Source of the DNA: Parachlamydiales bacterium
Lineage (GTDB): Bacteria; Chlamydiota; Chlamydiia; Chlamydiales; SM23-39
Assembly: GCA_050302075.1 (NCBI GenBank)
Contig: JBNLAH010000005.1
Span: 128,001 to 192,000, forward strand
Reading direction: 5' to 3'
DNA: 64,000 nucleotides
Position 1 is the first letter of the stretch. Each line of letters starts with the position of its first letter. This document shows, piece after piece, positions 16,738 through 46,378 of the stretch. Under the pieces are notes generated by a model. It had not been told where the DNA came from and did not search any database. It saw only the letters and a program-made list of their open reading frames with translations. The translations under genes and the position numbers were made by a program.

Positions 16738-16809
16738 TACAGCTTAACCTATAGAAACAGGATTATTTATATAATGATAAGCTCATAAGACTTTTGATTT
16801 TAAAGAAAC

Positions 16810-17160
16810 TTAAGAAAGAAATTCTCTTAAAAGTTTAATCTCCGATTTAGGAATTATCTTATTTGCTTTGATTGTATCATTATAAGGAATCCTCTTTGAA
16901 GCTTCGGTTATTTTATATTCAAGAGAATCTTTAAGAACTAAAATTCTTTGATAAGAGCGGTTGTTCATAATACTATTCATATCGCTATAAGTAACTTTTA
17001 ATGAAGAAAAGTCGCTGATCATATTTGTGATCATAGTATCAATGGTATTTATTGTAGTCTTTTTTTTTGAATCAAGAATGTCTAACACTTCCTTTAATTT
17101 TAATCTTAACACCTCTACTTGTCTCGTGACGGAGTTGTTATGTTGAGCTTCAGATATCAT
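16810..17160 (-). CDS. Hypothetical protein (116 aa, helical)
   Basis: Standalone ORF with ATG start and an AAAGGA SD-like sequence upstream. No motif recognised. Confidence 0.6.
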   Translation of the reverse strand: MISEAQHNNSVTRQVEVLRLKLKEVLDILDSKKKTTINTIDTMITNMISDFSSLKVTYSDMNSIMNNRSYQRILVLKDSLEYKITEASKRIPYNDTIKANKIIPKSEIKLLREFLS

Positions 17161-17377
17161 ATTTTTTCCTTTGTAAATGTAGTTAAAAATTTTTTTATAT
17201 ATCTAAAATTAAATAAAAACAATTATTAAATGATTAAGTGTTCTAAGTGATTGTTTAGTAGTAACTAATGCGTTGCAATTTTTTGATACATATAGTTATG
17301 AACTTATTCATAAGATTGATCTTTAATTGCTTTTCATGTTATTTTTTATTAGTTTTCTTTGGGGTATCTCTAAAAAA

Positions 17378-18685
17378 ATGAAAATTGCACTTGTCGGAAG
17401 ACCTAATGTAGGCAAATCAGCTCTATTTAACCGGATCTGTCAGAAACGAATTTCTATTGTGGAAGATGTTGAAGGGGTAACTCGTGATCGAATTTATGCT
17501 AAAGCTGAGATAAATAATAAAGAATTTGAATTGATCGACACAGGAGGAATCTCGTTTGAGAAGAACATGCCTTTTATCGATCAGATTAGGATGCAGGCTG
17601 AGATTGCCATTGAAGAGGCTGATGGTATTATCATGGTCGTAGACTTAAAGGCTAATGCTCAACTTTTAGATAAAGAGATAGCCAAAATACTTTTAGCTAC
17701 TAAGAAACCTGTCATCTTAGCTATCAATAAAGCCGATGATCAAACTGTTAAATACGATCTTTTTAGCTTTTATGAGTTAGGAATAGAGAATTTATTAGCT
17801 GTCTCCGCCATACATGGACACAATGTTTTTGATTTGATTGCAAAAATGTTTGAACTAGTTCCTTTTGAAGCTGATGAAAAAGAAGAAGAGAAAAGTGTAA
17901 ATGTAGCTGTTATCGGTCGAGCAAATGTTGGTAAATCCACATTATTAAATGCAATGCTCGGTAGTGAAAGATGTATTGTATCTCCAATAGCCGGAACAAC
18001 AAGAGATGCTGTTGATGTTTTATTAGAGCATAATAAAGAAAATTTTCTATTTATTGATACAGCTGGCATTAGACGAAAACATAAAGAAAAAGAAACAATT
18101 GAAAAATTCTCATCTCTTCGAACACAAAATGCACTAAAAAGAGCGGATATCTGTATACTTGTTCTAGATGTAAATGAGGGGATGACAACCCAGGAAAAGA
18201 GAATTCTAAAAGAAATTGAAACTCTGGGCAAAGGATGTATTATTTTTATTAATAAATGGGATTGCATTAAAGGGCACCGCATGGAGCACTGCATTTTATC
18301 TATTAAAAATGAATACTCACCTGCTAAAAATTTTCCAATCATTGTTGGCTCTGCAAAAGAAAAACGAAATATTGATAAAGTGTTTCAAAGTCTTTTAGAT
18401 CTAAAACTACAAATCCAAAGAAAAATCTCAACTCCTGAGTTAAACCGATTTATTGAAAAGAGCATGCAAAGAACCCATCCACCAATGATAAAAGGAAAAA
18501 GACTTAGAGTCTTTTATATGGTTCAGAAGACAACTCATCCAAAAAAGTTCATTTTATTTGTTAACTATCCCAATTTAATGACAAAAGCCTATAAGCAATA
18601 TCTAATAAATTCCTTAAAAGATACTTTTTCGCTCATCGGCTGTCCAATTGAGTTTACTTTAAGAGCTAGAATGTTGCATAAGTAG
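17378..18685 (+). CDS. der: Ribosome biogenesis GTPase Der (start taken as ATG 17378)
   Basis: Tandem G domains (GRPNVGKS/DTGG/NKAD and GRANVGKS/DTAG/NKWD) and a KH-like C-terminus. Confidence 0.96.
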   Translation: MKIALVGRPNVGKSALFNRICQKRISIVEDVEGVTRDRIYAKAEINNKEFELIDTGGISFEKNMPFIDQIRMQAEIAIEEADGIIMVVDLKANAQLLDKEIAKILLATKKPVILAINKADDQTVKYDLFSFYELGIENLLAVSAIHGHNVFDLIAKMFELVPFEADEKEEEKSVNVAVIGRANVGKSTLLNAMLGSERCIVSPIAGTTRDAVDVLLEHNKENFLFIDTAGIRRKHKEKETIEKFSSLRTQNALKRADICILVLDVNEGMTTQEKRILKEIETLGKGCIIFINKWDCIKGHRMEHCILSIKNEYSPAKNFPIIVGSAKEKRNIDKVFQSLLDLKLQIQRKISTPELNRFIEKSMQRTHPPMIKGKRLRVFYMVQKTTHPKKFILFVNYPNLMTKAYKQYLINSLKDTFSLIGCPIEFTLRARMLHK

Positions 18686-18720
18686 CTTTTTATCTTTCTT
18701 CGGCATATAAATGTTATATT

Positions 18721-20466
18721 ATGAAGAAAAAAGAAGAGACGCTTTCTTTGCTCCCTTTTGTCAAAGAAATTAAGCGTTACCATTTATCTACTTTCCGATC
18801 TGATTTATATGCTGCATTTGCAGTCGCATTGCTTGCTATTCCTCAGTCAATTGCGTATTCATTACTAGCTGGACTTCCACCAATAGCTGGTTTTTATTCA
18901 GCCATTTTTGGAACAATTTTTGCGTCTACTTTTGGCTCTTCAAGACATCTTATATCAGGGCCTACAACAGGGGTCGCAATCCTAATTCAAACAACTATTT
19001 TTGATACTCTACAAAACTACTTCCCGGATGCCGTAGGGGCTGAAAGGCAGCAGCTGGTTATTTTAATTTTAACACATATTGTGTTCATTATTGCAGCGGT
19101 TCAAATTTTTAGCGCATTTTTTAATGTAGGTAAGCTGCTACAGTTTGTATCAAGGTCGGTAGTGCTTGGGTATTTTGCTGGGATAACGTTAGCTATTTTA
19201 GCAAACCAGCTATATTATTTTGCTGGAGTTGAATTAGGTAAAGAAGAACTGTTAATTTTTCGCTTGGCATATTTTTTTACAAATCTAAAAGCGATTAAAG
19301 TCGGGTCAATAATTGTTGGGCTTGTAACACTTTTCCTTTTGATTTTTGTGAAAAAGAAGTTGCCTAAGTATCCAGATGCATTAATTGCTTTAGTTGTAGG
19401 TAGCATTGTTGCAGTATTAATAAACAATTATTTTACTAAAGAGTTCAGCGTTAAGACGTTTGCAAGTACAACGGATTCTCAGTCACCTAGCTTGCTAGTT
19501 AGTTTTCCTATTTTGCAGCTCAAAATTTTTAAAGAGGTTTTTTTCTCTTCTGTTGCAGTTGCTTTTGTTGCTATTTTGGAGGTTTTTTCAGTTTCTAGGA
19601 ATTTAGCAGCTAAGAGCGGACAAAATGTTCGCTCCAACCAGGAAGTTTTTGGTCTTGGGATCAGCAACTTTATCCTTTCCTTTTTTCTATATGTAATCCC
19701 AGCATCTGGGAGTGCTTCGAGGAGTGTCCTAAATTATGAGAGTGGGGCTAAGACAAGGTTCTCTGCAGTGTTAAGTGGAGTTTTGATTGCAATTTTGATC
19801 TTAGTTTTTTGGCCCTTAATTCGAGTGATTCCATTTGCATCGCTTGCCGCTATTTTACTTTTCACATCAATCAAACTGATTAACTATGAGAGTGTGAAAT
19901 TATGCTTTAGAGCGTCGAGGGGAGATGCGATTGTATACATTTTGACAATGGCATCATGTCTGGTATTCAACTTGGACATTGCTTTTTTTGTAGGAATTGT
20001 TATTTCGATTATTTTTTATCTTAAGCGCTCCGCTGAGCCTCACCAAGTTGAGTATGCTTTTGATTCAGCTGGTCGGCTTGCTGTTGTCAGCCCTGATGAA
20101 AAAAAACGAAGAAAAGTTAGGATTATTGGAGTATCTGGAGAGCTATTTTTTGGGACTGTAGACCTCTTTCAAAATACAATGCGGACAATTGCAAAAGATC
20201 AGCATGTTAAAGTGATTGTTCTCCGGTTAACTGGAGTTTATCATGTCGATGCTTCTATGTGTCTGGCCATATTGATGGTGTATGATTATTTGAAGACAAC
20301 AAAAAGGTATCTTGTTATCAGCGGTATTACCCAAGAGGTATGGGCTGTTTTTTCCAAAACTAGCCTCATCAAAAAAATTGGAGTTGAAAATTTATTTTTA
20401 TCTGATGAAGCCTCTCCGCAATTATCAACTTGGAAAGCCTGCTTAAGAGCGCAAGACTTACTTTAA
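18721..20466 (+). CDS. SulP/SLC26 anion transporter with STAS domain
   Basis: Motifs AIPQSIAYSLLAGLPP, FGSSRHLISGPT, NQEV and SASRS; C-terminal GELFFG...VDAS STAS domain. Confidence 0.93.
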   Translation: MKKKEETLSLLPFVKEIKRYHLSTFRSDLYAAFAVALLAIPQSIAYSLLAGLPPIAGFYSAIFGTIFASTFGSSRHLISGPTTGVAILIQTTIFDTLQNYFPDAVGAERQQLVILILTHIVFIIAAVQIFSAFFNVGKLLQFVSRSVVLGYFAGITLAILANQLYYFAGVELGKEELLIFRLAYFFTNLKAIKVGSIIVGLVTLFLLIFVKKKLPKYPDALIALVVGSIVAVLINNYFTKEFSVKTFASTTDSQSPSLLVSFPILQLKIFKEVFFSSVAVAFVAILEVFSVSRNLAAKSGQNVRSNQEVFGLGISNFILSFFLYVIPASGSASRSVLNYESGAKTRFSAVLSGVLIAILILVFWPLIRVIPFASLAAILLFTSIKLINYESVKLCFRASRGDAIVYILTMASCLVFNLDIAFFVGIVISIIFYLKRSAEPHQVEYAFDSAGRLAVVSPDEKKRRKVRIIGVSGELFFGTVDLFQNTMRTIAKDQHVKVIVLRLTGVYHVDASMCLAILMVYDYLKTTKRYLVISGITQEVWAVFSKTSLIKKIGVENLFLSDEASPQLSTWKACLRAQDLL

Positions 20467-25578: not shown

Positions 25579-25983
25579 CTAATATTTTTTAGGAAGAGAC
25601 TTTTCTTCTGTAGCGGGATCGAATTTATAATCAACGCCATCAATGCGAATAGTTCTATAGACCCAAGGATCACTGTTTTCTCGCATTAAGCGATCACAGC
25701 CCATAATAAATCCTTTGAAAAATCCGTAACGCTTGATTGCGTTTTCCATGTATCTTGAACTAGTTGGTCTAAAGTTGCTTTTAGGGCCATTGGCAGGGGA
25801 GATATTTGATTGGTAAAAAACAATTATTTTATTGGCTATTTTTGCACCGGTAGACTTTTCAGTAAGTTCTTCTTTTGCCCTGTGTTTTTTACTTAACTGA
25901 GATCCTTTTCCCCATGGTTCTTTGTAGTAGTCTTTAGCAAAGACCAAAAATGGAAGCATTAATATTATTAATCTAAAAGCCAT
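25579..25983 (-). CDS. yidD: Membrane protein insertion efficiency factor YidD-like protein
   Basis: FYQSNISP...FRPTSSRY...AIKRYGFFKG...DRLMREN pattern. The usual Cys residues are replaced and the N-terminus is signal-like. Confidence 0.72.
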   Translation of the reverse strand: MAFRLIILMLPFLVFAKDYYKEPWGKGSQLSKKHRAKEELTEKSTGAKIANKIIVFYQSNISPANGPKSNFRPTSSRYMENAIKRYGFFKGFIMGCDRLMRENSDPWVYRTIRIDGVDYKFDPATEEKSLPKKY

Positions 25984-26917
25984 ATTGCAAAGAAAACACT
26001 GGAAATAGTTTATAATGGTTCATTATCTTTGTGGCCATACCCTCGTATAACCTTTCGTTATAGTATCTGGCCTCAAGGCCTGCCCCATGAATACCCCCAA
26101 AATACCAACCAAGTTCGAAGCTTGTAGTAATAACACCCGCAGCTATTTCTCCTTTGGAGAAAAAATGGGCGGCAGCCCCAATGAATAATGCATTTATAAA
26201 AAAAGATGTAACAGCTGCTTTTTTTTGTCCTACATAAAGATAGCCAGTTCCAGGTAGCAGAGCATTAAAGCCCTTGGCTTTTGAGATTGATTTTTTATTT
26301 TGTGAATAGCTAGCTATAAGAAAAGATACATCTTTTTCGTAGTCGGTGGATTTTGATAGTTTTTCCATTTGAGGAATGTTGGCATTTAAGAAGGCTTGAG
26401 ATATTTGAATTTTTTTAGCACTTTTAGGAAAGTCCCTATTCAAAAGACTAAATACTTGTTCTGCCATTTGACAGTTTCCGGTTTTTAAATAGCTAGTATG
26501 TAAAATTATCAAAAGGTCGTGGTAAGGAGGAAAAGATTTGTCAACATGAGCCAATTCCGTTTTTTCAAATAAATTGACTACATCATCGTATCTATCACCT
26601 AGAAAATAGCAGAGTAAAATATTGTACTGTATTTCTAAAGCTCTGTCGGAGTCATCTTCTGTAAGAAGAAACTCAGCTCTTTTAAATGTTGAAACAGCTC
26701 TGTAAAGGTCCATCTCTTTAGCAAATCTAATTGCAATGATGTATTCCTTTGCCCATCCTTTTTCCCTATCAGCAGGATCAATAGGGGAGAAAGCAGGTTT
26801 TAGCTTATTGATATAGCTTTCTTCTAGCTGGTGATTTATTTTTGGCTCTATTTTATCTGGAACTCTATAGCATCCGATAGTAAATAAAGTTAGCAAAAAA
26901 AGAGTGATTCTAGTCAT
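25973..26917 (-). CDS. Putative lipoprotein with TPR-like helices and a C-terminal hydrophobic segment
   Basis: Lipobox-like LFTIGC, helical repeats, and an LLPGTGYLYVG (TM2-like) motif. Coupled to the cdsC stop. Confidence 0.65.
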   Translation of the reverse strand: MTRITLFLLTLFTIGCYRVPDKIEPKINHQLEESYINKLKPAFSPIDPADREKGWAKEYIIAIRFAKEMDLYRAVSTFKRAEFLLTEDDSDRALEIQYNILLCYFLGDRYDDVVNLFEKTELAHVDKSFPPYHDLLIILHTSYLKTGNCQMAEQVFSLLNRDFPKSAKKIQISQAFLNANIPQMEKLSKSTDYEKDVSFLIASYSQNKKSISKAKGFNALLPGTGYLYVGQKKAAVTSFFINALFIGAAAHFFSKGEIAAGVITTSFELGWYFGGIHGAGLEARYYNERLYEGMATKIMNHYKLFPVFSLQYGF

Positions 26918-29900
26918 CTTCGTATGATTTAATCATTTCCATAGCTTCATCTGTTTCATTTTCTAAAGCAGCATTCCCGGCTTTTTCTCTAAAGAAGTCT
27001 TCTTGCTGCTCAGTAATTGCTTGCATGTCTTCTAAAGAAGTAATGATATGCGGCTTTAAGAAAATAACAATATTTCTATCATTTTCAAGATTATTATTTA
27101 AACTAAATGCAGCTCCAATTAAAGGTAGTCCTCCAAGGCAGGGAATACCTGATTTGCTTCGATTTTTGGTTTGAGTTACCATGCCGGTCAAGATTAAGAA
27201 ATTTTTGTTTGGTACATGGAATGTTGTATCTAAGCTTGTTTTAGAGGTGGTGATTCCTTGAACATTATTAACAATCAAGTTTTGTTGGTCAGTTGTTTCT
27301 TGTCTGGAAAGTTTAAGTTGCAATGTCACAACATCCGAGTTACCAAGAACTGGAGTTATTTCCATATCAACACCAATATCACGATATTCAATGTTGGTAG
27401 TAGAAACAGTATTTGCACCTTCATTTTGAACAAAAGAACCAATAAATGGGATGTTAAATCCAATAAATAAATTAGATTTTTTACTGTCTTGAGCAAATAC
27501 TTTAGGGGTAGTCACGATGACAGTTTCATTATCTTGTTGAAGGGCTGTCATAAGCGATCCCATTGAAACAAATGACTGTCCTTTGTGAAAGATTACATCA
27601 CCGATTGCACCTAAACTAAAGCCACTTGAGAATGGGATGTCCGTTGGAACAGGGGTAGTTGTAGCATTGATCTGCTGGAATTGTCCTGGAAACGTTCCAC
27701 TTGCAGTAGAGGTGTTTGGGGGTAAATTGTTGAAGCTGGCAGATGCTTTATCTTTCCATTTGCCCTTACCTAGCCAATCTAGCCCAAAGTTCAAGGTATT
27801 TGTAAGTGATGTTTCGATAACTAGGACTTCAATAAAAACTTGTTTTAAAGGAATATCTAAACTTTTAATAAGCTCTCTTAGTCTTGTTAAAATTGGCTGT
27901 GATCCTGTGATCAGTAGTGAGTTAGTAACTTCTATCCATTGGATTGCATTAATAGTTTCTATTAAGGTTTTGTCGGCAGCTTTAGACTCTAGCAAGTCTT
28001 TTGCAATTGATCTAAGTGCACTTCTAATTTGCTCTCCTTTGTGATACTGAAGCTTATAGACTAAAAAGTTAGTTGAGCCGGTAGGAGACATAGTAGGTTC
28101 GTGGACTGATGATAAGCCATCAGATGGAGAATCAATTTCAGTTATTAAGCTCTTAACTTTGTCAATGGTCTGTTTGTCTCCAGTGACTATTAAAGACTTA
28201 TTAGACTCAACCCATCTTGTGTTGTTTAGCGCTTGGTGAAGTTTAGGGTCACATAAGCCACTCATCTTTAAGTTTTCACCAAATTCTTCAAGCTGTCTTT
28301 GGAGCTCGATTCCAGATAGATATTTTGGCTTATAAATAAAGAACTCTGCTTCTCCTTCTTGAAAACACTCGACGGCCCCAATAGGCGCAACATCAAATTT
28401 TTCAACAAGTGCTTGCGCTTTTTCTAAAGAAGCTGGATCACCTGTGAAAAGTAATGAGTTTGTCTCAGGTACATATTTCATGCTATCAAGGGCTTGAATG
28501 AATCTAGAATCAGCCGTGCCTGATCTTTTCAGGTCTTTAGTAATTTGTTTGACAGATGATTGAATTTGTGAGCCTGATGAGTTTCTAATCTTATACAGTA
28601 AAAATGTTGATTTACCAATTTGCTGAATTCGTGACTTGGATGCTTCATCATCGATATTGTCTAAAAGTGCTTGTAACTTTTTTAACGCTTCAGGGGTACC
28701 TGTAAAAATAAATGATTGAGTTGTATCGTTGTATTTCATCCCCTTAATTGCGCTAAGAAGGGCAGAGTCAGCCAGATCAGACTTTTTTAAGTTGCTAGCA
28801 ATTTCGTCTAACGATTTTTGAATAATCTCAGCTGGAATATTTTTTGGTTTATACATCAAAAAGTCAGTCTGTCCAATCCCAGACATATCTCTTTTTACAT
28901 CGAACTGAGCTACGATATTTTTAGCTTCTTCTAGAGTCTTAGGATAACCTGTTAGAAGAATAGAGTTAGTTTCTTTAACCCACTTTGCATTGTCTAAAGT
29001 ATCAATTAGATCGGAGTCTTTAAGCCCTGTTGCTTTTAAATTGCTTGCAAACTTCTCAAGATCCTCTTCGACAATTGCTCCTGAAATATTTTGAAGTTTA
29101 TATAAGTAATAAGAAGAAAGCGCATGTTTTTGGGCTTCTTCAGGTACATCAAAAGAATCTAATAAACTCTTAACCTTTTCTAAAGCAAACTCAGGCCCAG
29201 AAAACATTAAAGATCTCGACTCTGGAACCCATTTCATGGATTTGATGGCTTGAATAATAGGCTCGTTTTTTAGTCCTGATTTAGAGAGGTTTTGAACAAC
29301 TTCTTTTAAATACTGTTCAGCCCTATCTTTTGGTACATATTTCAGCTGATAAATAAAATAAGTTTGTTGAGCTCCTGAAATTTCTTTAGAGTCAATATCT
29401 TTTAGCAACAGCTCCAACTTTTGTAAAGAAGCTGAATCACCTGTAAAGATAATTGACTGTGTATTTTTTATAAATTTCCCACTTTCAATGGCTCTTAGGA
29501 GAGCTGGATTTGCTAAGTTTGAAGATTCAAAGCTTTGCGCCATTTCTTTTAATGACTCCAGGACTTGATCTCCAGTTAGATTTTGAGGGTGGTAAATAAG
29601 AAATTGATTGCTAATTGGCAACAGCCCATTTTTTTGGTCAAAACTCTCTAACAAGCTTTTTAGTTTTTTTATTCCAGACTCAGGGCCTGTGAATAAAAGA
29701 GAGTTTGTATCAGGCATGTACTTTGCTGATTCAATGGTCTCAATCAAATCCTTTTCTTCAACATCAGCTTTTTTTAGGTCCTTAGCAGTAGCTTTAAGGG
29801 CATCTAATAAAGTAGTGTGCGATGTGTTTTCTACTTTGTACATCCAAAAAGTTTTTTTGTGAGATAACAAATCTCCATTTGCTTCAGTGTCAGCTGATAT

Positions 29901-31184
29901 TAGTATTTCTTTTATTTTTTCAAAAACTTCCGAGCTTCCGGTGAATAAAATTGAATTGGTAGAGGTGATCATTTTAGAGTTTTTCAATGCATCGATCAAA
30001 CTCTCGTCAGGATATTTCGAGCTGACTAGCTCTTCCGTATACTTGTCTAAAGCAGTTTTCAAACCGGCTAAGCTTAAGTTTTGTGGCTTATAGATATAAA
30101 ATTTTGTAGAGCCTGCAAAGGTACCTTTGTCTGGATTGTCAATTGTAGCTAGCAGTTCTTTTATTTTTAAAATTGAGGTCGCACTGCCTGTAAATAAGAT
30201 GGAATTTGTTTCTGGAATAAATGCTAATGAATTGATTGCATCGATTAAGTCTTTTTCAGGTGTTCCGCTTTCTTTAATCGAGTCTTTGATTTTGTTTAGG
30301 GCCTTAATAAGCTCTTGTGCACTTTTAGTAACTGGCTGGTAAATGAAAATATTTTCATTTTTAATTTGTCTGCCTTTCATGGGCCCTTTGCTTTCAACGT
30401 CAATACTTGTAAAGACTTTGATTGCTTTCTCAGCAAGCCTTGGTGTTGAGACTATATAAATAGTGTTCGTAGATTCCTGAGGAACTAAAATAAAAGGGTT
30501 TCCTGCTGCGAGGGGAGCCATAAGTTGATTTGCCAAACTGATAATATAGTTTGGATGATTATAACTGGCATGATATGACTTGATCTCGAGTGGAGTGTCA
30601 GGAGAATCTAAATTCTCAATTAACGAGTCGATTTTTTCTAGATTCGTTGTAATATCAGTTAATACAATTTGTCTTGTTTCAGGTAGAACATCTAAGATGG
30701 CGCTTTCAGAGATCATCGATCCAATTATTGCTGCTATAGACTCTACAGACGTGTTTTGTATCTTGAATACCTTGGTTAAAATAGGGGCGCTTGAATCTAT
30801 TTTTTCATTATCTTTAGATACTTGAGCTAGTTGCTTGACATTAGTAGCTTTTGTGATAATTAAATTGTTATCTTGCTCTAAGATATGCATACCGTTAATT
30901 CTTAAGGACTGAATTAACGTGGACATTAAACTGTCTTTAGTGATTGGTTCACTAGAGGTTACAGAGATAGTATAAGGCTCTAACTCTGCTTGATCATAGA
31001 TAAAGTTCAGTGATGCTACTTTTCCAACAAATTTGACGTATTCAATCAACGATACATTCTTGTAGTCAATTGTATACCCCTGACTTGCTTGTTTGTTCTC
31101 TTTTGCTGAAATGCTATGAGATAAAAAACATCCCAAAAGAACAAATGGAAAAAAGAATTTGGTTTTACAAAAAACCATTTTCAT
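26910..31184 (-). CDS. cdsC: Type III secretion outer-membrane secretin CdsC/SctC, with expanded N-domain repeats
   Basis: Signal peptide, N0/N1/N2-like domains, ten N3-like repeats and a C-terminal secretin core (KQVFIEVLVIET, IEYRDIG, GIPCLGGLPLIGAAF, IVIFLKPHII). Located after pkn5, like CT674. Confidence 0.92.
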   Translation of the reverse strand: MKMVFCKTKFFFPFVLLGCFLSHSISAKENKQASQGYTIDYKNVSLIEYVKFVGKVASLNFIYDQAELEPYTISVTSSEPITKDSLMSTLIQSLRINGMHILEQDNNLIITKATNVKQLAQVSKDNEKIDSSAPILTKVFKIQNTSVESIAAIIGSMISESAILDVLPETRQIVLTDITTNLEKIDSLIENLDSPDTPLEIKSYHASYNHPNYIISLANQLMAPLAAGNPFILVPQESTNTIYIVSTPRLAEKAIKVFTSIDVESKGPMKGRQIKNENIFIYQPVTKSAQELIKALNKIKDSIKESGTPEKDLIDAINSLAFIPETNSILFTGSATSILKIKELLATIDNPDKGTFAGSTKFYIYKPQNLSLAGLKTALDKYTEELVSSKYPDESLIDALKNSKMITSTNSILFTGSSEVFEKIKEILISADTEANGDLLSHKKTFWMYKVENTSHTTLLDALKATAKDLKKADVEEKDLIETIESAKYMPDTNSLLFTGPESGIKKLKSLLESFDQKNGLLPISNQFLIYHPQNLTGDQVLESLKEMAQSFESSNLANPALLRAIESGKFIKNTQSIIFTGDSASLQKLELLLKDIDSKEISGAQQTYFIYQLKYVPKDRAEQYLKEVVQNLSKSGLKNEPIIQAIKSMKWVPESRSLMFSGPEFALEKVKSLLDSFDVPEEAQKHALSSYYLYKLQNISGAIVEEDLEKFASNLKATGLKDSDLIDTLDNAKWVKETNSILLTGYPKTLEEAKNIVAQFDVKRDMSGIGQTDFLMYKPKNIPAEIIQKSLDEIASNLKKSDLADSALLSAIKGMKYNDTTQSFIFTGTPEALKKLQALLDNIDDEASKSRIQQIGKSTFLLYKIRNSSGSQIQSSVKQITKDLKRSGTADSRFIQALDSMKYVPETNSLLFTGDPASLEKAQALVEKFDVAPIGAVECFQEGEAEFFIYKPKYLSGIELQRQLEEFGENLKMSGLCDPKLHQALNNTRWVESNKSLIVTGDKQTIDKVKSLITEIDSPSDGLSSVHEPTMSPTGSTNFLVYKLQYHKGEQIRSALRSIAKDLLESKAADKTLIETINAIQWIEVTNSLLITGSQPILTRLRELIKSLDIPLKQVFIEVLVIETSLTNTLNFGLDWLGKGKWKDKASASFNNLPPNTSTASGTFPGQFQQINATTTPVPTDIPFSSGFSLGAIGDVIFHKGQSFVSMGSLMTALQQDNETVIVTTPKVFAQDSKKSNLFIGFNIPFIGSFVQNEGANTVSTTNIEYRDIGVDMEITPVLGNSDVVTLQLKLSRQETTDQQNLIVNNVQGITTSKTSLDTTFHVPNKNFLILTGMVTQTKNRSKSGIPCLGGLPLIGAAFSLNNNLENDRNIVIFLKPHIITSLEDMQAITEQQEDFFREKAGNAALENETDEAMEMIKSYEDD
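27855..30350 (-). repeat. Ten tandem ~83-aa secretin N3-like protein repeats within cdsC
   Basis: Each unit reads roughly F(F/L)xY(K/Q)(P/L)x(N/Y)...L...LxxAIxSxx(W/Y/F)xxxTNS(L/I)(L/I)FTG......K...LL..(I/F)D. Counted by eye in the translation; divergent at DNA level. Confidence 0.88.
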
Positions 31185-31318: not shown

Positions 31319-32887
31319 TTAAAATGTTCTCAAAATACTTAAGATAGCAAAGTTTTGGAAGTTTGCATCTATTTCATTTGTTTTTACATCGCTTAGTATT
31401 TTCTCTGTTTGCTGTTGAGGAGATAAAAGCAGGTGGTTGTTAATAAACTCTGGAAAGTTTTTGCTCATGTTTAATTGTTTTGAAGGTATAAATAAAATAT
31501 CTTCAACATTCCAGCTATCGCTAGTCTCTAAAAAGTAAGTGTTGATATCTTTGCCAAGAGGATCATTGGTCGATTTTAACTCATTTAGTATTTTTGTATC
31601 TTTTGAGTAGTGGAAAACGCTTTTGTCTCCACTAGAGATTAGGCTGAGGCGATCCAAACTGGAATTTAATAAGATTAAAGAGCAGTCGAAATGTTCTGGC
31701 ACTTTAAAAGTGTTGATTATGAGTTTGTTCAACTCGGTAAAAAATTCAGTTAAGTTAAAGGTTTCTTTCTCTTTTGTGAACAGGTTTACTAAAGACTGCA
31801 CTATTCCTTTTAAAGTGGCTGTTGCTACAAAAGTACTTGGCCCTTCAGATTTTGATTCTGCAAAAAAAATAAGAAAGCTTGAGCCAAATACTTTAAAAAA
31901 ATCTAAATAAAGTGCTGTCGAAGATAGACCTTTTTGTTTTTCGAAACCGGCCTTAATTTGTGGCCATTTTGGAAGGTCTACATGGAAAAAATTCTCTGTT
32001 TTTTTTAAAAAGTCTTCAAAGGCATCTCCATATGGCTCTTTGACTTTTTTATTTTCGAATTTTTTCAAATAGGCATTAATATCTGTAATAAAGTCGACAA
32101 TATCTTGATATCTCATTTTTGGGTCGGCCTGAAGAGCTTTGTCGATTATTGGCCTGAGATCACTTGGTAGAAAAGAAAAGTGAATTACTCCATGGCTTAA
32201 TCTTCCTAATATCAATTCATAGGCAATAATACCGAGCGAGTAGATATCTGAAACGAAAGACGCTAAATCTGGATTCTTTTTCTGCTCAGGACTCATGTAG
32301 ACTGGAGTACCAAGGAACTTTCCTTTTTTAAGAGTAGTGTCTTCCGGGATTTCTGTATGTAGTTGTGCAATTCCAAAGTCAATTACTTTTACTCCGCCAT
32401 ACTCGGTTATTAAAATATTTTCAGGTTTTAGGTCTCTGTGGATTACTCCATGGGTATGTAGGTGTAAAAGTGCATACGCAACTTCCTGAATAATTTGCAG
32501 TGCTCTTTTTTGAGAAAGAGATTTTTGTAAAATAAACTGCCTTAGAGAAACCCCTTGAACAAACTCCATAGCAATAAAAAGTCCTTTTTCCCACTTTCCT
32601 TGGTCATATAGCTTTACGATATTAGGATGATCAGTCATGGAAATAATCTCGGCTTCTTTTAAAAACCTGCTCACCATTTCATTATTCGTGATAAATTTAG
32701 GTGATAAGATTTTAACTACGACTGGTTCTCCTGATTTTGGATGTGTTGCTAAGTATAAAAAGCTCATGCCTCCTTTGGTTAGTCTCGATTCAATTCGATA
32801 TGGGCCTACCATTGAAGGGGATGGAAATGATGTAACGTCGGTTAAATTTGGAAGTGTGTTCTGACTATAAAAGTTTTTTTTTGCCAT
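31319..32887 (-). CDS. pkn5: Ser/Thr protein kinase Pkn5 with C-terminal PP2C/SpoIIE-like domain
   Basis: Motifs KGGMS, VVVK, HRDLKPEN, DFG, GTPVYMSPEQ and SDIYSLG. Lies between cdsQ and cdsC, like CT673. Confidence 0.88.
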   Translation of the reverse strand: MAKKNFYSQNTLPNLTDVTSFPSPSMVGPYRIESRLTKGGMSFLYLATHPKSGEPVVVKILSPKFITNNEMVSRFLKEAEIISMTDHPNIVKLYDQGKWEKGLFIAMEFVQGVSLRQFILQKSLSQKRALQIIQEVAYALLHLHTHGVIHRDLKPENILITEYGGVKVIDFGIAQLHTEIPEDTTLKKGKFLGTPVYMSPEQKKNPDLASFVSDIYSLGIIAYELILGRLSHGVIHFSFLPSDLRPIIDKALQADPKMRYQDIVDFITDINAYLKKFENKKVKEPYGDAFEDFLKKTENFFHVDLPKWPQIKAGFEKQKGLSSTALYLDFFKVFGSSFLIFFAESKSEGPSTFVATATLKGIVQSLVNLFTKEKETFNLTEFFTELNKLIINTFKVPEHFDCSLILLNSSLDRLSLISSGDKSVFHYSKDTKILNELKSTNDPLGKDINTYFLETSDSWNVEDILFIPSKQLNMSKNFPEFINNHLLLSPQQQTEKILSDVKTNEIDANFQNFAILSILRTF

Positions 32888-32902: not shown

Positions 32903-33961
32903 TTAAATCTCAAGGATTCTAACTCCGATAACTTCACCTACTTTAATAAGCTCTCCTTTTGCAACGGTCTTATTATTTAAAGTAAGCGAAACATTTTCCT
33001 GTGGATTGATCGTAGTTTCAATGACCTCTCCCGGTTGTAGTGACATAAGCTTTTCTAAGCTCATTTCGATCTTTCCCATCTCTATTTGAAGAGAAAGGGG
33101 AACTTCTTTTACTGGGGTGGTGTTTTCGTTATCTTCCATATTGTCCTCTTTTAATTCTGCAAAGTCTAATACCTTCAATTTGCCTTGTTTTACTTTCACT
33201 TGATAAAGAGGGTTTTGATTAAGTGTTAACAAAACACTCCCTTGATGTGTTTTAGGATCATAATAACTGTGGTCTAAAATAACAAAGTCGCCAACTGAAA
33301 TTGCTTCGAATGTAGTATAATTTAAACTAACACTGCCAACATTTATTGAAAGAAAAAAGTCTATCTTGCTGGAAAGTTTTGAAGCCAATAAATCTGGTTC
33401 TTTTAAAAATTGATTTTTCCAAGCTGTTACTATTTCCTTCGATATTACAAGCTTTGCATAAGCCGAGCGTTCTTGATAAATTATTCGAACATCAATGCAA
33501 AGAGAGGGGCTTTTAAGTTCTTTTGAGTCGGATGAAATTTTCAAGGAAAATCCTTCTAAGATTTTATCTTGATCACATACATCCATAGCCTCTAGCATAA
33601 GATAATGATAATATCCCTCCTGGAGAATTTCAGATGAAAATGCTTTAGCTGAAGCATCTTTTGTCATAGCCCAAGTGGTAATTTTAGCGACCTCATTTAA
33701 GTCCATTAACCAATGAAATGTAGCTTCAAGAGGAAGTATATTAAAGCTTAGCTGTGATGAGTCGCTGCTGGTAAGTTGGCTGATTTCCTCATCGGTAAGC
33801 CATTTTGTTTTCTCAACTTTTATTTCTAAATCTTGAAGGTTTAAGCGTTCTTTTAAACGCTTTGACATCAAAGACAAATTTGGACAAAAAAAACCTGGTG
33901 GAAGTTCAACAGTTTCCAGAATTTTTTTTGAAACTTGGCTGTAGTTAAAAACATTTTCCAT
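32903..33961 (-). CDS. cdsQ: T3SS cytoplasmic ring protein CdsQ/SctQ
   Basis: C-terminal SpoA domain (VPLSLQIEMG...LQPGEVI...AKGELIKVGEVIGVRILEI) plus operon position. Confidence 0.92.
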   Translation of the reverse strand: MENVFNYSQVSKKILETVELPPGFFCPNLSLMSKRLKERLNLQDLEIKVEKTKWLTDEEISQLTSSDSSQLSFNILPLEATFHWLMDLNEVAKITTWAMTKDASAKAFSSEILQEGYYHYLMLEAMDVCDQDKILEGFSLKISSDSKELKSPSLCIDVRIIYQERSAYAKLVISKEIVTAWKNQFLKEPDLLASKLSSKIDFFLSINVGSVSLNYTTFEAISVGDFVILDHSYYDPKTHQGSVLLTLNQNPLYQVKVKQGKLKVLDFAELKEDNMEDNENTTPVKEVPLSLQIEMGKIEMSLEKLMSLQPGEVIETTINPQENVSLTLNNKTVAKGELIKVGEVIGVRILEI

Positions 33962-34935
33962 TATCTTCCTAGTGGCCCTCCACCAACATCACTTCCACCC
34001 GGCCTTTCTTTTCTACGAAATAGCGGGCGTTCTGTTTCATATGCTGCTTCAATTCTACCAATCCGAAAGTTAAAGTTTCCGCGGCTGAAAGTTTCCATTA
34101 ATATATCGATATTTCCATTAAACATCGCAACTGCCTCTGGATTTCCAGTAAGCTTGATATTAAAAGAATCGGGGGCAGTCGAGTATTTTTCTAGTACAAT
34201 TTTTGAACCATAAAATACAGAGCCTTCCATTTCCGGGTTATTTAATAAGATCTCAGTTTGCATAATGCCCTCTTTTGAGTTCATTACCAAAATTTGACCA
34301 ACCATTTGCTCAAAAACTGGAGGCACCTCAGATGTTAAGCTAACTTTTAAGTCATTTGCAGCCTCATGGGCTATCTGGGCGATATCAGGTGGGATAACAG
34401 GAGCTGCAGTGATAAAAGGAATTTCTTTTTTTCGTTGTTCTAATGGTTGAGTGTCTTTTGCTTCTTCAGACTCAGTTTTTTTCTCTTCTAAATCTTCTAA
34501 AGGCTCTCTAGGCTCTTTTTTAGAAGGGATTTTCTTTTGAGAAGGCACGAATAGATTTTCTTCTTTTGCAACCTTTCTTCTTTCTTCGTTTTCCTGCATT
34601 TCAAGCTCATCAATTGATAGAGGCGCTTTTTCGGCCTCAATTTTTGACTTTTCTTCAATGTAATCATGAGCTGGAAGTTTTTTATCTACTTTAGCAATTT
34701 CAGCTGGGCCTTTATCGTAGAAAGCTGATTCATATGGAGACGGTTTTTTATCCGTTTCAGGCTCTTTTTTTTTCTCTTCTAAATGCTGTTGGAACTTGCG
34801 TCTTTTTTTCTCCTCAGGATCTACTTCACTGGCTTTTTCAACATGATAATCTTTGCCTTTAACACCGCCAAATTTGCCGGCTTTACCGCGTTTAAAAGGA
34901 TCATCAGCAGACTGTTGATTAATTCGGTGTATCAT
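33961..34935 (-). CDS. cdsP: T3SS protein CdsP-like (CT671; proposed needle-length ruler)
   Basis: Charged low-complexity N-terminal half and a compact C-terminal domain. Lies between cdsO and cdsQ; its TAA overlaps the cdsQ ATG. Confidence 0.72.
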   Translation of the reverse strand: MIHRINQQSADDPFKRGKAGKFGGVKGKDYHVEKASEVDPEEKKRRKFQQHLEEKKKEPETDKKPSPYESAFYDKGPAEIAKVDKKLPAHDYIEEKSKIEAEKAPLSIDELEMQENEERRKVAKEENLFVPSQKKIPSKKEPREPLEDLEEKKTESEEAKDTQPLEQRKKEIPFITAAPVIPPDIAQIAHEAANDLKVSLTSEVPPVFEQMVGQILVMNSKEGIMQTEILLNNPEMEGSVFYGSKIVLEKYSTAPDSFNIKLTGNPEAVAMFNGNIDILMETFSRGNFNFRIGRIEAAYETERPLFRRKERPGGSDVGGGPLGR

Positions 34936-34968: not shown

Positions 34969-35475
34969 TTAGGATTTTTTATGAGGGTTTTCTCTTTTTT
35001 TTATTTCATGAATAACTGTGCCAAGCTCATCGTGTTTTATTTCTTCTTGCCTTCGCTCTTCTTTTTCATGCTCTTTTAGCCACTCTTTTTTGTGGATTCT
35101 CAGTTTTTCAAGATCCTTTTGTTTTTGTATCATGTCTTGCTTTGCTATTTCCACTTGCTTTTGGGCAAGTTCAACTTGTTCTTTTTGCTCGTCCACTTTT
35201 TTTTGATGTTCTTCAAGCTTACTTTCAACAGTCTCAAGATATCTTTTCATTTCTTGAATTTTGATAGTGCCTTGGCCAGTATCCAAGGCTTCCCTTAGCT
35301 GGGTTAGTTTATCATTTTTATGTTTTAATGCCTCATCTCTTTTCTCTTCCAGCTGCTTTAGTTTTTTTTCCTCACTTTCTAAAAGTTCTTTTTTTGCTTC
35401 AAGAACTCTGACAGATTCGTCAAAGCGTCTTTTTTTTATGTCTAAAACTTCTTCAAGTGGATATTTTGTAGCCAT
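34969..35475 (-). CDS. cdsO: T3SS stalk protein CdsO/SctO (CT670)
   Basis: Starts KYPLEEVLDIKKRR, is entirely coiled coil, and directly follows the ATPase. Confidence 0.88.
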   Translation of the reverse strand: MATKYPLEEVLDIKKRRFDESVRVLEAKKELLESEEKKLKQLEEKRDEALKHKNDKLTQLREALDTGQGTIKIQEMKRYLETVESKLEEHQKKVDEQKEQVELAQKQVEIAKQDMIQKQKDLEKLRIHKKEWLKEHEKEERRQEEIKHDELGTVIHEIKKRENPHKKS

Positions 35476-35478
35476 ACA

Positions 35479-36801
35479 TTATCGAAATAAGTTTTTAAGT
35501 CCGGCTAAAGTGTCTTCAAAAGATGATTTTTCCTGAACGGATTGTTTTAAAAATTGGTTTACTTTGTCAATATGAGAAATTGCAAAATCAGCATCTTTGT
35601 CTGATCCTGATTTATATTCACCGATCCTAATTAGTAGTTCATTTTTTTTATAGTTGGCTAGAACTTCTCTTAAGGTACCGATAAGTTTTTGGTGTTCTTT
35701 ATCAGTAATATGAGTAATTATCCTGCTTACAGATGACAAGATGTCGATTGCAGGAAAGTGATACTGTCGAGCAAGGTCTCTAGATAAAATAATATGTCCG
35801 TCTAAGATAGATCTTGTTTCATCGGCTATTGGCTCGTTCATATCATCACCCGCAACTAAGATTGTATAAAATCCAGTTATAGATCCTTTATCTGAATTGC
35901 CTGAACGCTCAAGTAGTTTCGGCAGTGTTGAGAAAACTGAAGGAGTAAAGCCCGCTCTAGCAGGGGGTTCTCCAGCAGCTAGGCCTACCTCTCTTAGAGC
36001 TCTTGCATATCTTGTTACGGAATCCATCATCAGTATAACAGACTTACCTTGGTCTCTAAAATATTCAGCGATGGCAGTCCCGACATATGCAGCGTTTATT
36101 CTAAGTTGAGGTGCCTGGTCCGATGTTGAAACAATCACAACCGATCGCTTTAACCCATCTTCTCCTAGGTCATTCTTTAAAAATTCACGTACCTCTCTTC
36201 CTCTCTCTCCAATTAAAGATATGACGTTAACATCTGCTTTAGCGTTTCTGGCTATCATGCCAAGTAATGTTGACTTCCCAACACCGGCGGCTGCAAAAAT
36301 TCCAACCCGTTGGCCTTTGCCGCATGTTAATACACCATCTATACTTTTAATCCCGACAGAAAGTGGTTCGGAAATGATTTTTCTTTTTAAAGGACTTGGA
36401 GGTGCGGCAATAACTGGAACCGAATCTGGTAAATCCCCAATAGGCCCTTGAGTTTCCTCATCTATTGGTTTGCCAACTCCATTTAAAACTCTTCCTAAAA
36501 GATTTTTACCAGCTTTGATATGCAAAGATAGTCTCATAGGAATGACTTCAGATGAAGGTCCAATCCCAGACATTTCTCCTAAAGGGGATAGAATTACCTC
36601 GTCTTTAGTAAAACCGACAACCTCCGCAACTAAAGGCTCCATGTTATCTCTTTTAATTAAACAAACTTCACCGAGCTTAACTTGAGGAATTACAGCTTTA
36701 ATTAGCATTCCAACCGCTTCGGTTATTCTGCCATGAACTGTGGTTAACTCTACATCACCTAAGTGTTCGATTAATTTGTCTAGCGAAGAGTCTTTTTCCA
36801 T
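35479..36801 (-). CDS. cdsN: T3SS ATPase CdsN/SctN (start taken as ATG 36801)
   Basis: Walker A AAAGVGKST; motifs LIGERGREVREF, MMDSVTRYARA and DGHIILSR. Confidence 0.97.
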   Translation of the reverse strand: MEKDSSLDKLIEHLGDVELTTVHGRITEAVGMLIKAVIPQVKLGEVCLIKRDNMEPLVAEVVGFTKDEVILSPLGEMSGIGPSSEVIPMRLSLHIKAGKNLLGRVLNGVGKPIDEETQGPIGDLPDSVPVIAAPPSPLKRKIISEPLSVGIKSIDGVLTCGKGQRVGIFAAAGVGKSTLLGMIARNAKADVNVISLIGERGREVREFLKNDLGEDGLKRSVVIVSTSDQAPQLRINAAYVGTAIAEYFRDQGKSVILMMDSVTRYARALREVGLAAGEPPARAGFTPSVFSTLPKLLERSGNSDKGSITGFYTILVAGDDMNEPIADETRSILDGHIILSRDLARQYHFPAIDILSSVSRIITHITDKEHQKLIGTLREVLANYKKNELLIRIGEYKSGSDKDADFAISHIDKVNQFLKQSVQEKSSFEDTLAGLKNLFR

Positions 36802-36805
36802 AAAA

Positions 36806-37441
36806 TCACAATTGAACATTAATCATTTGTTTAACTACGTCCACAGCTTTGCTGAGTAAAGTAGAGGCATACTCTAATGATTGCTGGGCTTGAGCTAATT
36901 TTACTTGAATTAACATCAGATCACCAGGTCTCAACTCACCTCCTTCAGCGCTTTGAAGATCAATTATCTTTTGTTTTGCTTCTTTGAGTTGTTTTTCCCC
37001 ATTAGTAGCTAGTTGCAAAAACCTTTCAATAGGGTTGAATCCTGATGGAGGGGGTTCGCTAGGCAATACATTAGCTCCTACTTTCTCTGCAGCGCTCATT
37101 AGATGGTTGTTTGCTTCTGATAGCTTATTTCGCATCAGGTTTTGTTCAGATCTTTTGAATTTAAGATTTTTGGTTTTTAAGTTCTTTTGTAGTTCGTCAA
37201 AAGTATGCTCAGACTGCCACATCTGTGCGAGTAAAGAGTCTATTGAAGGTTCTGCTATTAGCCCACTTTGAGGCAAGTTCAAAGGTGACACTTGAGATGT
37301 ACTAGTGGGAGGTGCTCCAGGTGCGGGCCTTGGCTCATTCATAGCAGACTGAAACTGCGATCTATCGGGAGCAGGCTTTTGCTCTTGTGGTTTTATAGGG
37401 CCTATATTTTCAGGTCCGATAGGTGGTATTTGCTTTGCCAT
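36806..37441 (-). CDS. T3SS-associated protein, CT668-like
   Basis: Lies between cdsG and cdsN. Pro-rich N-terminus; the C-terminus PGDLMLIQVKLAQAQQSLEYASTLLSKAVDVVKQMIN resembles inner-rod/needle-type helices. Confidence 0.75.
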   Translation of the reverse strand: MAKQIPPIGPENIGPIKPQEQKPAPDRSQFQSAMNEPRPAPGAPPTSTSQVSPLNLPQSGLIAEPSIDSLLAQMWQSEHTFDELQKNLKTKNLKFKRSEQNLMRNKLSEANNHLMSAAEKVGANVLPSEPPPSGFNPIERFLQLATNGEKQLKEAKQKIIDLQSAEGGELRPGDLMLIQVKLAQAQQSLEYASTLLSKAVDVVKQMINVQL

Positions 37442-38399: not shown

Positions 38400-40229
38400 T
38401 TATTGGTTGTAATTGATTTTATATTTTAATCCTTCTTTTTCAAGAAGAATTGTATCTTTCATTATTTTAGTAATATCCATCCCGTCAATACTATCACCTA
38501 AAGTTAGGATCCTTCCATTTATGACAACACTAAAATTGTTGCCATCGTATTTTGCAAATCCGGTGACTTGATAATTGTCGGAGATATTAATTCTAGCTGC
38601 TTCAGCTGAAGATGCTATAGCTACATTTTGTACTGACCTAACACCTGGAATATCTTCCAAATTTTGAATAAGTTTTTCAAACTCAGAATTTTTCTTTTCG
38701 TCGAAAAATCCAGATAATAGTACAGCTCCATTAGTCTGTTCAAACCTTATACCATTAAAACCACTCGATTGCAATTTAGCTGAAATTTCTAAATTTAGTG
38801 TTTGGTCAACATACACTTTGTCATCTAGCATATCTAAATGGGGAAAATGAGTAGTTAAGAAATCTCCTAACTGGTCTTTTTGATCAAGTGTTTGAAGATA
38901 GCCTGATACTACAAATTTTCCGGCTTGTGTCGCATAAATATTAATTCCTTCCCATTCAGCATTTTCAGTTAGTATATCATTTACATTCTTCCAAATAAGT
39001 TCATCAATAATTAAATTGTCTTCGATACTCGTAATGAATTTAAGAGCATGTAAATTATATAAAAGCTCTTCTTTGTCAATTGATGTCAGAACATGCCCTG
39101 TTAGAAAGAGTCTTCCTGTGATAGGGTTGAAAGAAAACTGAACATCAGAATATTTAGATAAGGCACTTGCAATTTGACCTGATTGGTTAACTTTAGGGGC
39201 TTTAATCTGTTGTGTCTTAAATAAAGAAAAAAAACTAATGAAGACAATAAACATAATGAATATGAAGGCGCCTCCAGCAATTAAATACTTAGAGGGTATG
39301 ACCCTTTCTTTCCAGTTTACGGGGAGCTCTGCTGCTTCGGGCCTTTCTTCGAGTTCTGCTGGTTCCTCTTCTTCTTCTATATGGGCAAAAGAAGGGGAGT
39401 AAATGGTTTCTTGAGCTGCTTCTTTATCTAAAATAACAAATGTTGTTGTTCCACATGCTATTAAATCCTGAGGTGTGATCTGTTTTTTTTCTTCAATTGT
39501 AATTCCATTAACTCTTGTGCCATTTTTCGAGTGAAGATCTTCAATAAAAAAGGTTCCATCTTCTTGTGCGGTTAGTTTTGAGTGGTTCCTTGACACACTT
39601 AAATCTTGGAATACTATCTCGCAAGAGTTTGGATCTTTACCAATAACGTAGGATTTCCCTTTTTCGATGCCGATTTCAGCTCCGGCATTCGGGCCCGATA
39701 TAACTTTTAAAATCAAGGGAGTATCAGCTATTAGGTGAAAAGGAGCCTCTTCCTCGCTTTCCTCGAATATAGTGTCGTAAACACTAGGTGTTTCGTTTTC
39801 AATTGACGGCTTTTTCTTTACCTTTTCTTTTGGGGTTTCTTTTTCTTCTGCTGGCTCAGGTTCTTTTAAATCAGAAAAAATATCATCAAAATTATTTTCT
39901 TCAATGTCTTCTTCAAAAAAATCTTCATCTTCAGAAAATATAAAAGTTGTTTGCCCTATTAAAACTTTATCGCCATCTTTCAGTTGGATAGTACCGGTTA
40001 CTTCTTCGTCATTGATTGAAATTGGATTAGTTTGACTTAAGTTCTTTAGAAAAAACCCTTCATCAGAACGGGTAACTTCAGCATGTTTTCTAGATACAGT
40101 AGTATCTTCTAAAACTAGATCAGCTTGGTCAGGATCCCTGCCAATTGTCCATGTATTACCAGTATCAAAGTTTAAAACAAGACCTTTTAAAAGTCCTTCT
40201 TCTGCGGATAAATAAGCTGCCATACTCAA
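38400..40229 (-). CDS. cdsD: T3SS inner-membrane ring protein CdsD/SctD with two FHA domains
   Basis: FHA1 (IGRDP...VSRKHA...N), acidic linker, FHA2 (IGKDP...VSRNH...SKNGT), one TM segment and BON-like periplasmic domains. Confidence 0.92.
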   Translation of the reverse strand: MSMAAYLSAEEGLLKGLVLNFDTGNTWTIGRDPDQADLVLEDTTVSRKHAEVTRSDEGFFLKNLSQTNPISINDEEVTGTIQLKDGDKVLIGQTTFIFSEDEDFFEEDIEENNFDDIFSDLKEPEPAEEKETPKEKVKKKPSIENETPSVYDTIFEESEEEAPFHLIADTPLILKVISGPNAGAEIGIEKGKSYVIGKDPNSCEIVFQDLSVSRNHSKLTAQEDGTFFIEDLHSKNGTRVNGITIEEKKQITPQDLIACGTTTFVILDKEAAQETIYSPSFAHIEEEEEPAELEERPEAAELPVNWKERVIPSKYLIAGGAFIFIMFIVFISFFSLFKTQQIKAPKVNQSGQIASALSKYSDVQFSFNPITGRLFLTGHVLTSIDKEELLYNLHALKFITSIEDNLIIDELIWKNVNDILTENAEWEGINIYATQAGKFVVSGYLQTLDQKDQLGDFLTTHFPHLDMLDDKVYVDQTLNLEISAKLQSSGFNGIRFEQTNGAVLLSGFFDEKKNSEFEKLIQNLEDIPGVRSVQNVAIASSAEAARINISDNYQVTGFAKYDGNNFSVVINGRILTLGDSIDGMDITKIMKDTILLEKEGLKYKINYNQ

Positions 40230-43744: not shown

Positions 43745-43754
43745 TAGGAGACAT

Positions 43755-44522: not shown

Positions 44523-44534
44523 TAGGAGATAAAA

Positions 44535-45071: not shown

Positions 45072-45082
45072 GGGAGGTAAAA

Positions 45083-45736: not shown

Positions 45737-45737
45737 T

Positions 45738-46364: not shown

Positions 46365-46378
46365 GGGAGGTATAAAAT

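Follow-up and report, generated by a model that had tools for sequence, protein, structure and literature searches.

The window analysed here, a 64,000-nucleotide stretch of contig JBNLAH010000005.1 from a Parachlamydiales bacterium (assembly GCA_050302075.1), carries a chlamydial type III secretion system (T3SS) operon that holds cdsD, cdsN, cdsO, cdsP, cdsQ and a kinase gene and ends with cdsC, the subject of this analysis. The cdsC open reading frame (26910-31184, minus strand) is intact, encodes 1424 amino acids (aa) and has no internal stops, and the window contains no ambiguous letters (N). A preliminary description had placed ten tandem N3-like units at 27855..30350 within this 1424-aa protein, and this was borne out: a profile built from the units puts ten units of about 84 aa across residues 278-1113 (27846-30353), with the same first and last motifs. 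By its core domain, its N0 and KH-like N domains, its place in the operon and its type II secretion system (T2SS)-like sequence, CdsC is identified as the chlamydial T3SS secretin, and family knowledge suggests that it would form the oligomeric outer-membrane pore that holds the needle. The gene and its domains are as follows:

26910..31184, minus strand: cdsC/sctC, type III secretin with 13 N-type domains, 1424 aa (open reading frame and domain scans)
30858..31067, minus strand: N0 domain, residues 40-109 (PF21305, E 1.2e-5; 25.5 bits, just below the cut-off of 27)
30606..30782, minus strand: N1 domain, about residues 135-193, canonical beta-alpha-beta-beta-alpha (AlphaFold model; Pfam Secretin_N, E 2.4e-8)
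30402..30587, minus strand: N2 domain, about residues 200-261 (AlphaFold model; match to secretin N domains with Z 10.1, root-mean-square deviation (rmsd) 1.4, 63 aligned)
30129..30353, minus strand: unit 1, residues 278-352 (unit profile, AlphaFold model and Pfam, as for units 2 to 9)
29880..30104, minus strand: unit 2, residues 361-435 (weakest Pfam match, E 0.049)
29628..29852, minus strand: unit 3, residues 445-519
29382..29606, minus strand: unit 4, residues 527-601
29139..29363, minus strand: unit 5, residues 608-682
28890..29114, minus strand: unit 6, residues 691-765
28641..28865, minus strand: unit 7, residues 774-848
28383..28607, minus strand: unit 8, residues 860-934
28122..28346, minus strand: unit 9, residues 947-1021
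27846..28070, minus strand: unit 10, residues 1039-1113, the ancestral N3 domain (Pfam, E 4e-10; profile comparison)
26985..27845, minus strand: secretin core, residues 1114-1400 (PF00263 at 1214-1381, E 3.7e-32)

Since self-BLAST and tblastn of the secretin returned the full-length hit only, the units were delimited by motif and profile. Their pairwise identity is 22-42%, and in DNA comparisons the only recurring similarity lies in short stretches (61-79% identity) spaced at multiples of about 250 nt. Scanned singly, all ten units have Secretin_N (PF03958) as their best Pfam match (E 4e-10 to 0.049), four of them passing the curated cut-off alone, and the family scores 250.7 bits on the whole of CdsC. 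An AlphaFold model of residues 28-1115, built with 38 sequences (mean predicted local distance difference test score, pLDDT, 74; predicted template modelling score, pTM, 0.34), contains N0, a canonical N1 and N2, followed by ten beta-alpha-alpha-beta-beta-alpha repeats joined by low-confidence linkers (pLDDT < 50). Each unit is thus predicted to fold as the ring-building motif plus one inserted helix, which in all ten follows the first helix and precedes the second strand. The N0 model matches N0 of enterotoxigenic Escherichia coli (ETEC) GspD (4JTM; Z 10.9, rmsd 2.2, 80 aligned), unit 6 matches residues 176-300 of the Salmonella InvG chain 6PEE (Z 7.7, rmsd 2.5, 71 aligned), and Foldseek ranks 1-10 hold secretin chains only. 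Units 5-7 superpose on N1-N3 of GspD, and alignments were also obtained for units 9-10. A four-copy complex prediction of units 5-7 (score 0.01, mark 0.42) was not used either way.

Unit 10 was the best match for the last or only unit in all 11 secretins compared, among them that of the family read as Chlamydiaceae, and is therefore taken as the ordinary N3 domain. The ten units first described accordingly stand as units, with nine of them additional, and together with N0, N1 and N2 they bring CdsC to 13 N-type domains.

The fold of N0, N1, N2 and the units is that of GspD/XcpQ and InvG/MxiD/EscC, but these have one N3 only, and the units in the window add the inserted helix. CdsC is T2SS-like rather than YscC-like (TIGR02517 348.9 bits, below the cut-off of 351.35, versus 109.2 bits for TIGR02516). 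It is nevertheless not a T2SS GspD: the gene stands in the T3SS operon, the protein groups with other chlamydial CdsC in trees, and a separate secretin of 711 aa is encoded on contig C3, followed by a GspE-like ATPase (a label read from the sequence). CdsC of Chlamydia trachomatis (921 aa) shares the operon order and a T2SS-like secretin with N0-N1-N2-N3, but owes its length to a hydrophilic N-terminal region of about 250 residues and to insertions (PMC4682100, PMC3459982). This architecture, with about 250 residues before N0 and a single N3, is not that of the CdsC in the window, where N0 starts at residue 40 and the added length consists of nine further N3-type domains. Another close likeness is PilQ of Thermus thermophilus, a type IV pilus secretin lengthened by extra N-domain rings to six, in a cell-wide periplasm of about 70 nm (PMC5745081, PMC4463427), and more than three N rings therefore has a precedent outside T2SS and T3SS (PMC5745081). 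Unlike PilQ, the protein described here belongs to a T3SS and has 13 N-type domains (its clade ranges from 7 to 24), a number that varies among relatives and is coupled to a predicted ruler.

The ten-unit secretin is confirmed as real. Ten units are also present in the two nearest genome records. The stretch is crossed without a gap by a single contig of run X1 (X1 is a possible source of the assembly, so this is not independent) and tiled by relatives' contigs from run X2, with depth in all 30 bins; short parts are covered in runs X3 and X4. An artefact of assembly or annotation has next to no probability: nothing specific speaks for it apart from the general fact that metagenome assemblies can miscount repeats, and it is contradicted by the low identity between units, by relatives from other assemblies with ten units in register and by the contigs that span or tile the stretch. 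The earlier view that units so divergent in DNA mark an old expansion is upheld.

Unit number in the Chlamydiota and the length of CdsP

Of 300 genomes sampled from the whole phylum, 296 have the secretin. All 120 listed homologues of CdsC carry 8-21 units, in a list of proteins of 783-2492 residues that is score-ranked and biased in favour of long, high-scoring proteins. The wider sample consisted of 140 stretches picked for long contigs and family spread, 80 named loci and the window (221 loci), and yielded 196 distinct complete secretins, the remainder being cut by contig ends, split or duplicate. The tabulation across the Chlamydiota showed the array in 125 of the 196, with 4-21 units at a pitch of 84 residues (5-95%: 78-93) and from 15 family codes plus named records; a further 60 secretins, from 20 other family codes, have a single unit (one with a weak second hit), and the remaining 11 are short paralogues. 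Among the expanded secretins, 7-10 units are most frequent: one has 4, two have 5, seven have 6, 21 have 7, 24 have 8, 19 have 9, 20 have 10, seven have 11, 13 have 12, three have 13, five have 14, one has 16 and two have 21.

In a FastTree phylogeny (187 of the 196 rows) the expanded secretins fall together with the short paralogues on one side of a branch with a support of 97, and the same split was found with IQ-TREE (Shimodaira-Hasegawa approximate likelihood ratio test, SH-aLRT, 83; 69 rows), with two long branches at the base of the expanded clade. A single origin of the expansion is likely on these trees. Named records within the clade bear the titles Simkaniaceae, Rhabdochlamydiaceae, Ca. 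Anoxychlamydiales and SM23_39, and the secretin in the window groups with the latter two. The clade matches Group 1 of the chlamydiae, which comprises Simkaniales plus Anoxychlamydiales (PMC9816063). Ten units are hence not special to this genome but ordinary within Group 1, and the gene represents a clade-wide variant of the T3SS secretin. Databases already name some homologues "secretin N-terminal domain-containing protein", so that the architecture is visible in automatic annotation. An atlas search with the array gave leads below 0.9 only, all of them Secretin_N clusters and some from Planctomycetota and Verrucomicrobiota.

The order cdsD-cdsN-cdsO-cdsP-cdsQ-kinase-cdsC is kept in most of the fetched stretches of both the expanded and the single-unit groups. 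The corresponding genes in the window are:

38400..40229, minus strand: cdsD, inner-membrane ring, 609 aa, unexpanded (domain scans; no covariation with unit number)
35479..36819, minus strand: cdsN, T3SS ATPase (PF00006 and PF18269)
34969..35475, minus strand: cdsO, stalk (PF16789)
33961..34935, minus strand: cdsP, predicted needle-length ruler, 324 aa (position between cdsO and cdsQ; structure model; structural match)
32903..33961, minus strand: cdsQ, C-ring (PF01052)
31319..32887, minus strand: Ser/Thr kinase directly upstream of cdsC, which we take to be pkn5 (PF00069)
25973..26917, minus strand: predicted TPR lipoprotein, 314 aa, overlapping the cdsC stop (sequence features)

Scans with Pfam and NCBIfam gave no family for CdsP, the downstream lipoprotein or the 211-aa and 82-aa genes of the operon. 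In the structure model of CdsP, residues 1-175 are disordered and residues 176-300 confidently folded, and the best match among 48,161 representative chains is the substrate-switch domain of the Pseudomonas ruler PscP (Z 8.9, rmsd 2.8, 93 of 94 residues), followed by FliK-C (Z 5.9, rmsd 3.0, 86 aligned). Foldseek also ranks PscP and FliK first, with weak E values of 0.018 and 0.028. The C-terminal domain is therefore predicted to have the PscP/FliK substrate-switch fold, and CdsP is predicted to be an SctP-like ruler. Like Yersinia YscP, Pseudomonas PscP and flagellar FliK, CdsP lies between sctO and sctQ and combines a disordered N-terminal part, variable in length among relatives, with the C-terminal switch (T3S4) fold. 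Unlike them, its translation contains no exact match to the Pro-x-Leu-Gly signature of rulers (PMC2835726), and identity is 10-12%. As the signature and the family matches are lacking, we treat CdsP as a predicted ruler. A review states that CT671/CdsP might control needle length (PMC6717882).

CdsP could be measured in 81 of the 125 expanded loci, with start codons set by a first-Met rule, and contrasts were taken on a secretin tree whose alignment excluded the extra units. Unit number tracks CdsP length, and this is the new finding of the analysis. CdsP rises with the number of units (Spearman rho 0.68, n=81), from a median of 343 aa at 7 units through 486 at 10 and 578 at 14 to 685 at 21, and 80 independent contrasts gave r 0.77 with a slope of 22.9 +- 2.1 CdsP residues per unit, 43 of the 50 contrasts of at least one unit running in the same direction. 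The correlation of contrasts was 0.70 after the two 21-unit rows were dropped and 0.78 on a CdsN+CdsQ tree (68 rows), and ten further genomes outside the fit gave rho 0.95, uncorrected for kinship. The controls were flat, with contrast r of 0.08 for CdsD, 0.07 for CdsQ, 0.12 for the kinase, 0.08 for the N-terminal extension of the secretin and -0.06 for guanine-cytosine content. That CdsD is not expanded, as first described, was thus confirmed by its length as well as by its domain content (two FHA domains, PD1, PD2, a third BON-like domain and a C-terminal domain). Unit number was likewise unrelated to the length of GspD (contrast r -0.07, 71 genomes), which has 562-881 codons in all 71 expanded-secretin genomes, with 760 and 770 in the two 21-unit genomes. 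Within the single-unit families, the length of the N2-N3 insert is weakly related to CdsP (rho 0.49, n=35; contrast r 0.31, p 0.07), and the length of the N-terminal extension is unrelated to it. Natural variation of CdsP length that follows the secretin sets it apart from the known rulers; our literature searches, made by keyword with most subscription papers outside their coverage, found nothing on an expanded chlamydial secretin or on coupling of secretin and ruler.

Short paralogues, other long secretins and neighbouring genes

The 11 short paralogues (L064, L077, L090, L091, L096, L097, L100, L103, L106, L108 and L110) are second CdsC-like secretins of 521-625 aa with N0, one N3-type unit and the core, in which N1 and N2 were not detected. 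They lie outside the T3SS operon, in several loci near kdsA-like genes (a label from the sequence), and form one clade nested among the expanded secretins on the Simkaniaceae/Rhabdochlamydiaceae side. No short paralogue was found in the family code of the window, where each of 46 genomes has one secretin match; its loss by this family was considered and dropped because of that nesting. Many relatives also have a second, short CdsP-like gene of about 180-265 codons after the long one (for example L132:10366-11145, L139:11458-12159 and L112:12434-13030). Copies of both were counted in 80 hand-picked genomes, non-independent by kinship, of which 77 had a ruler match. Secretin and ruler copy numbers agree in 62 of the 77 (39 with two of each, 23 with one of each) and disagree in 15 (12 with two secretins and one ruler, three the reverse). 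The genome of the window has one of each.

Long secretins also arise in other ways. In two loci of family code f20 (L196:15528-19058 and L200:15453-19391) it is N2-like units that have multiplied, apparently in a separate expansion, with four additional copies in L196 and at least two in L200; the genes in the CdsP position there encode 391 and 398 aa, compared with 320 in a relative without the extras. In two f12 loci (L216:1015-6306 and L225:1123-6945) an insert of about 1000-1300 residues stands between N2 and N3, that of L216 being rich in Q, E, K and L and coiled-coil by eye; to judge from sequence, this is a third way to lengthen the secretin at the same site. In three f25 loci (L237, L240 and L243) the secretin measures 1888-2758 aa, of which 1150-2010 residues precede N0, and has one N3 only; single-unit secretins occur as tandem duplicates outside the clade (L197:12327-15110 and 16017-18917; also in G053 and G028).

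The gene for the predicted TPR lipoprotein directly follows cdsC in 110 of the 122 expanded loci and 48 of the 60 single-unit loci, and follows the secretin gene in none of six f16 loci and none of the 11 short paralogues. We consider the 314-aa protein a candidate chlamydial pilotin. A YidD-like gene comes after it. Elsewhere in the window, 42611-47251 (plus strand) holds six genes in a row without an assigned family, some of which resemble chlamydial translocator or secreted-protein clusters, an impression from N-terminal sequences only.

Proposed ring stacking and its alternatives

Each N domain of T2SS and T3SS secretins forms a ring, and rings of secretin N domains are likewise described for PilQ (PMC5745081). 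Tandem duplication of the N3 domain to ten copies in CdsC would, if the copies oligomerise, give ten stacked rings and a longer periplasmic barrel, while N0 would still dock on the unchanged CdsD ring. Every extra unit would place one more ring between N2 and N3, the needle would have to grow by one ring height, and CdsP would lengthen in step so that the needle still clears the outer membrane. The membranes would then be held apart locally at the injectisomes and not round the whole cell. We put the probability of such rigid stacking into a longer basal body at roughly 65%. The much longer barrel that had been proposed at the outset is thus likely, and it now has the backing of the covariation between units and CdsP.

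Dimensions can be estimated from published scales. At 0.2 nm per ruler residue (bioRxiv 10.1101/2020.03.25.007062), 22.9 residues correspond to 4.6 nm per unit, about one ring height, and the 35 nm of Thermus PilQ for six rings plus the secretin domain (PMC5745081) limit a ring to less than 5.8 nm. Taking about 3-4.6 nm per unit and adding nine rings to the 34-nm basal body of C. trachomatis (PMC4682100), we infer a basal body of some 60-75 nm here, by arithmetic and not measurement, and of some 95-125 nm with 21 units. Whether the longer array is itself selected for or drifts with the ruler compensating, either may apply.

Several observations weigh against rigid stacking. The pTM of 0.34 says nothing on how the units are arranged. 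The CdsP of the window (324 aa) lies 127 residues, about two standard deviations, under the regression, and this genome and its two nearest relatives have the lowest ruler-per-unit ratio of the 81. The 179-197 residues ahead of the folded domain have a maximal reach of 66-73 nm at the 0.37 nm per residue of a fully extended chain (PMC6972891), hardly more than the inferred barrel, so that the needle would barely emerge. On that same scale the slope would make each unit 8.5 nm long, more than a single ring can account for, and no single value of nm per residue fits both the ruler of the window and the slope. Rulers are no shorter in the single-unit families (median 356 aa, range 267-735, n=35), even against the 7-unit genomes (median 343 aa). 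Within the family code of the window rho is 0.37 (n=14, p 0.19), two of nine tip pairs run the opposite way, and a binarised test of independent pairs, with 8 pairs only, gave 3.2 in the same and 0.1 in the opposite direction (median p 0.25). CdsO showed an unexpected negative contrast (r -0.34), probably a start-codon artefact of the first-Met rule. The idea of a molecular ruler is itself contested, both for Shigella Spa32 (PMC2835726) and for FliK (bioRxiv 10.1101/2020.03.25.007062); Spa32 shows that the scale varies from one system to another and that some proteins of this kind do not act as rulers (PMC2835726).

Some of these points would suit a different arrangement, in which the units make up a flexible or compressible array, acting as a spring or partly ordered sleeve and giving the basal body a large stroke, with CdsP tracking the units because both respond to something shared, for instance how far away the host membrane is. 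The linkers of low pLDDT, the low pTM, the short ruler of this genome and the absence of a ruler offset between single-unit and expanded families all fit such an array, as does the C. trachomatis basal body, whose periplasmic domains make it 4-5 nm shorter when it touches the host (PMC4682100). We nevertheless think it unlikely, since the slope, about 23 residues per unit, holds on two trees and without the extremes, comes to about one ring height at 0.2 nm per residue, and is accompanied by a regular 84-residue pitch of the units. Less likely still is the view taken in the preliminary description, that these bacteria have an unusually wide envelope throughout and that the secretin lengthened to bridge it. 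A precedent exists in Thermus PilQ, whose six rings cross a periplasm of about 70 nm (PMC4463427, PMC5745081), but a generally wide periplasm is disfavoured by the type II secretin, which is unexpanded in the same genomes, by the constant length of CdsD and by the many relatives with a second, much shorter CdsC-like secretin. Furthermore, elementary bodies of C. trachomatis widen the periplasm only at the T3SS pole (28.6 nm, compared with 13.8 nm at the opposite side; PMC4336559). With GspD and CdsD unchanged, we read the widening as local, as it is in C. trachomatis.

Rigid stacking could be taken further, although we hold this only tentatively and rather doubt it. The Group 1 injectisome would be length-tunable, its barrel length being set digitally by how many N3 rings there are (4-21, for a barrel of up to about 120 nm) and each ring matched by some 23 residues of ruler. 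On the Simkaniaceae/Rhabdochlamydiaceae side, which also encodes the short second secretin and the short second ruler, one cell would build a long and a short injectisome on the same inner-membrane base, for example by developmental stage.

The usual view is that secretins of T2SS and T3SS have three or four N rings and that an injectisome basal body measures about 30 nm. A major branch of the chlamydiae now appears to vary its ring number from 4 to 21, and the predicted lengths can be checked by imaging cultured members of the clade. The coupling to CdsP strengthens the case for calling CT671/CdsP the chlamydial ruler, a name given only tentatively so far, and offers a natural experiment on the disputed question of whether SctP proteins measure length, that of the basal body as well as that of the exposed needle. 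It also suggests that the machine itself sets the local spacing of the membranes.

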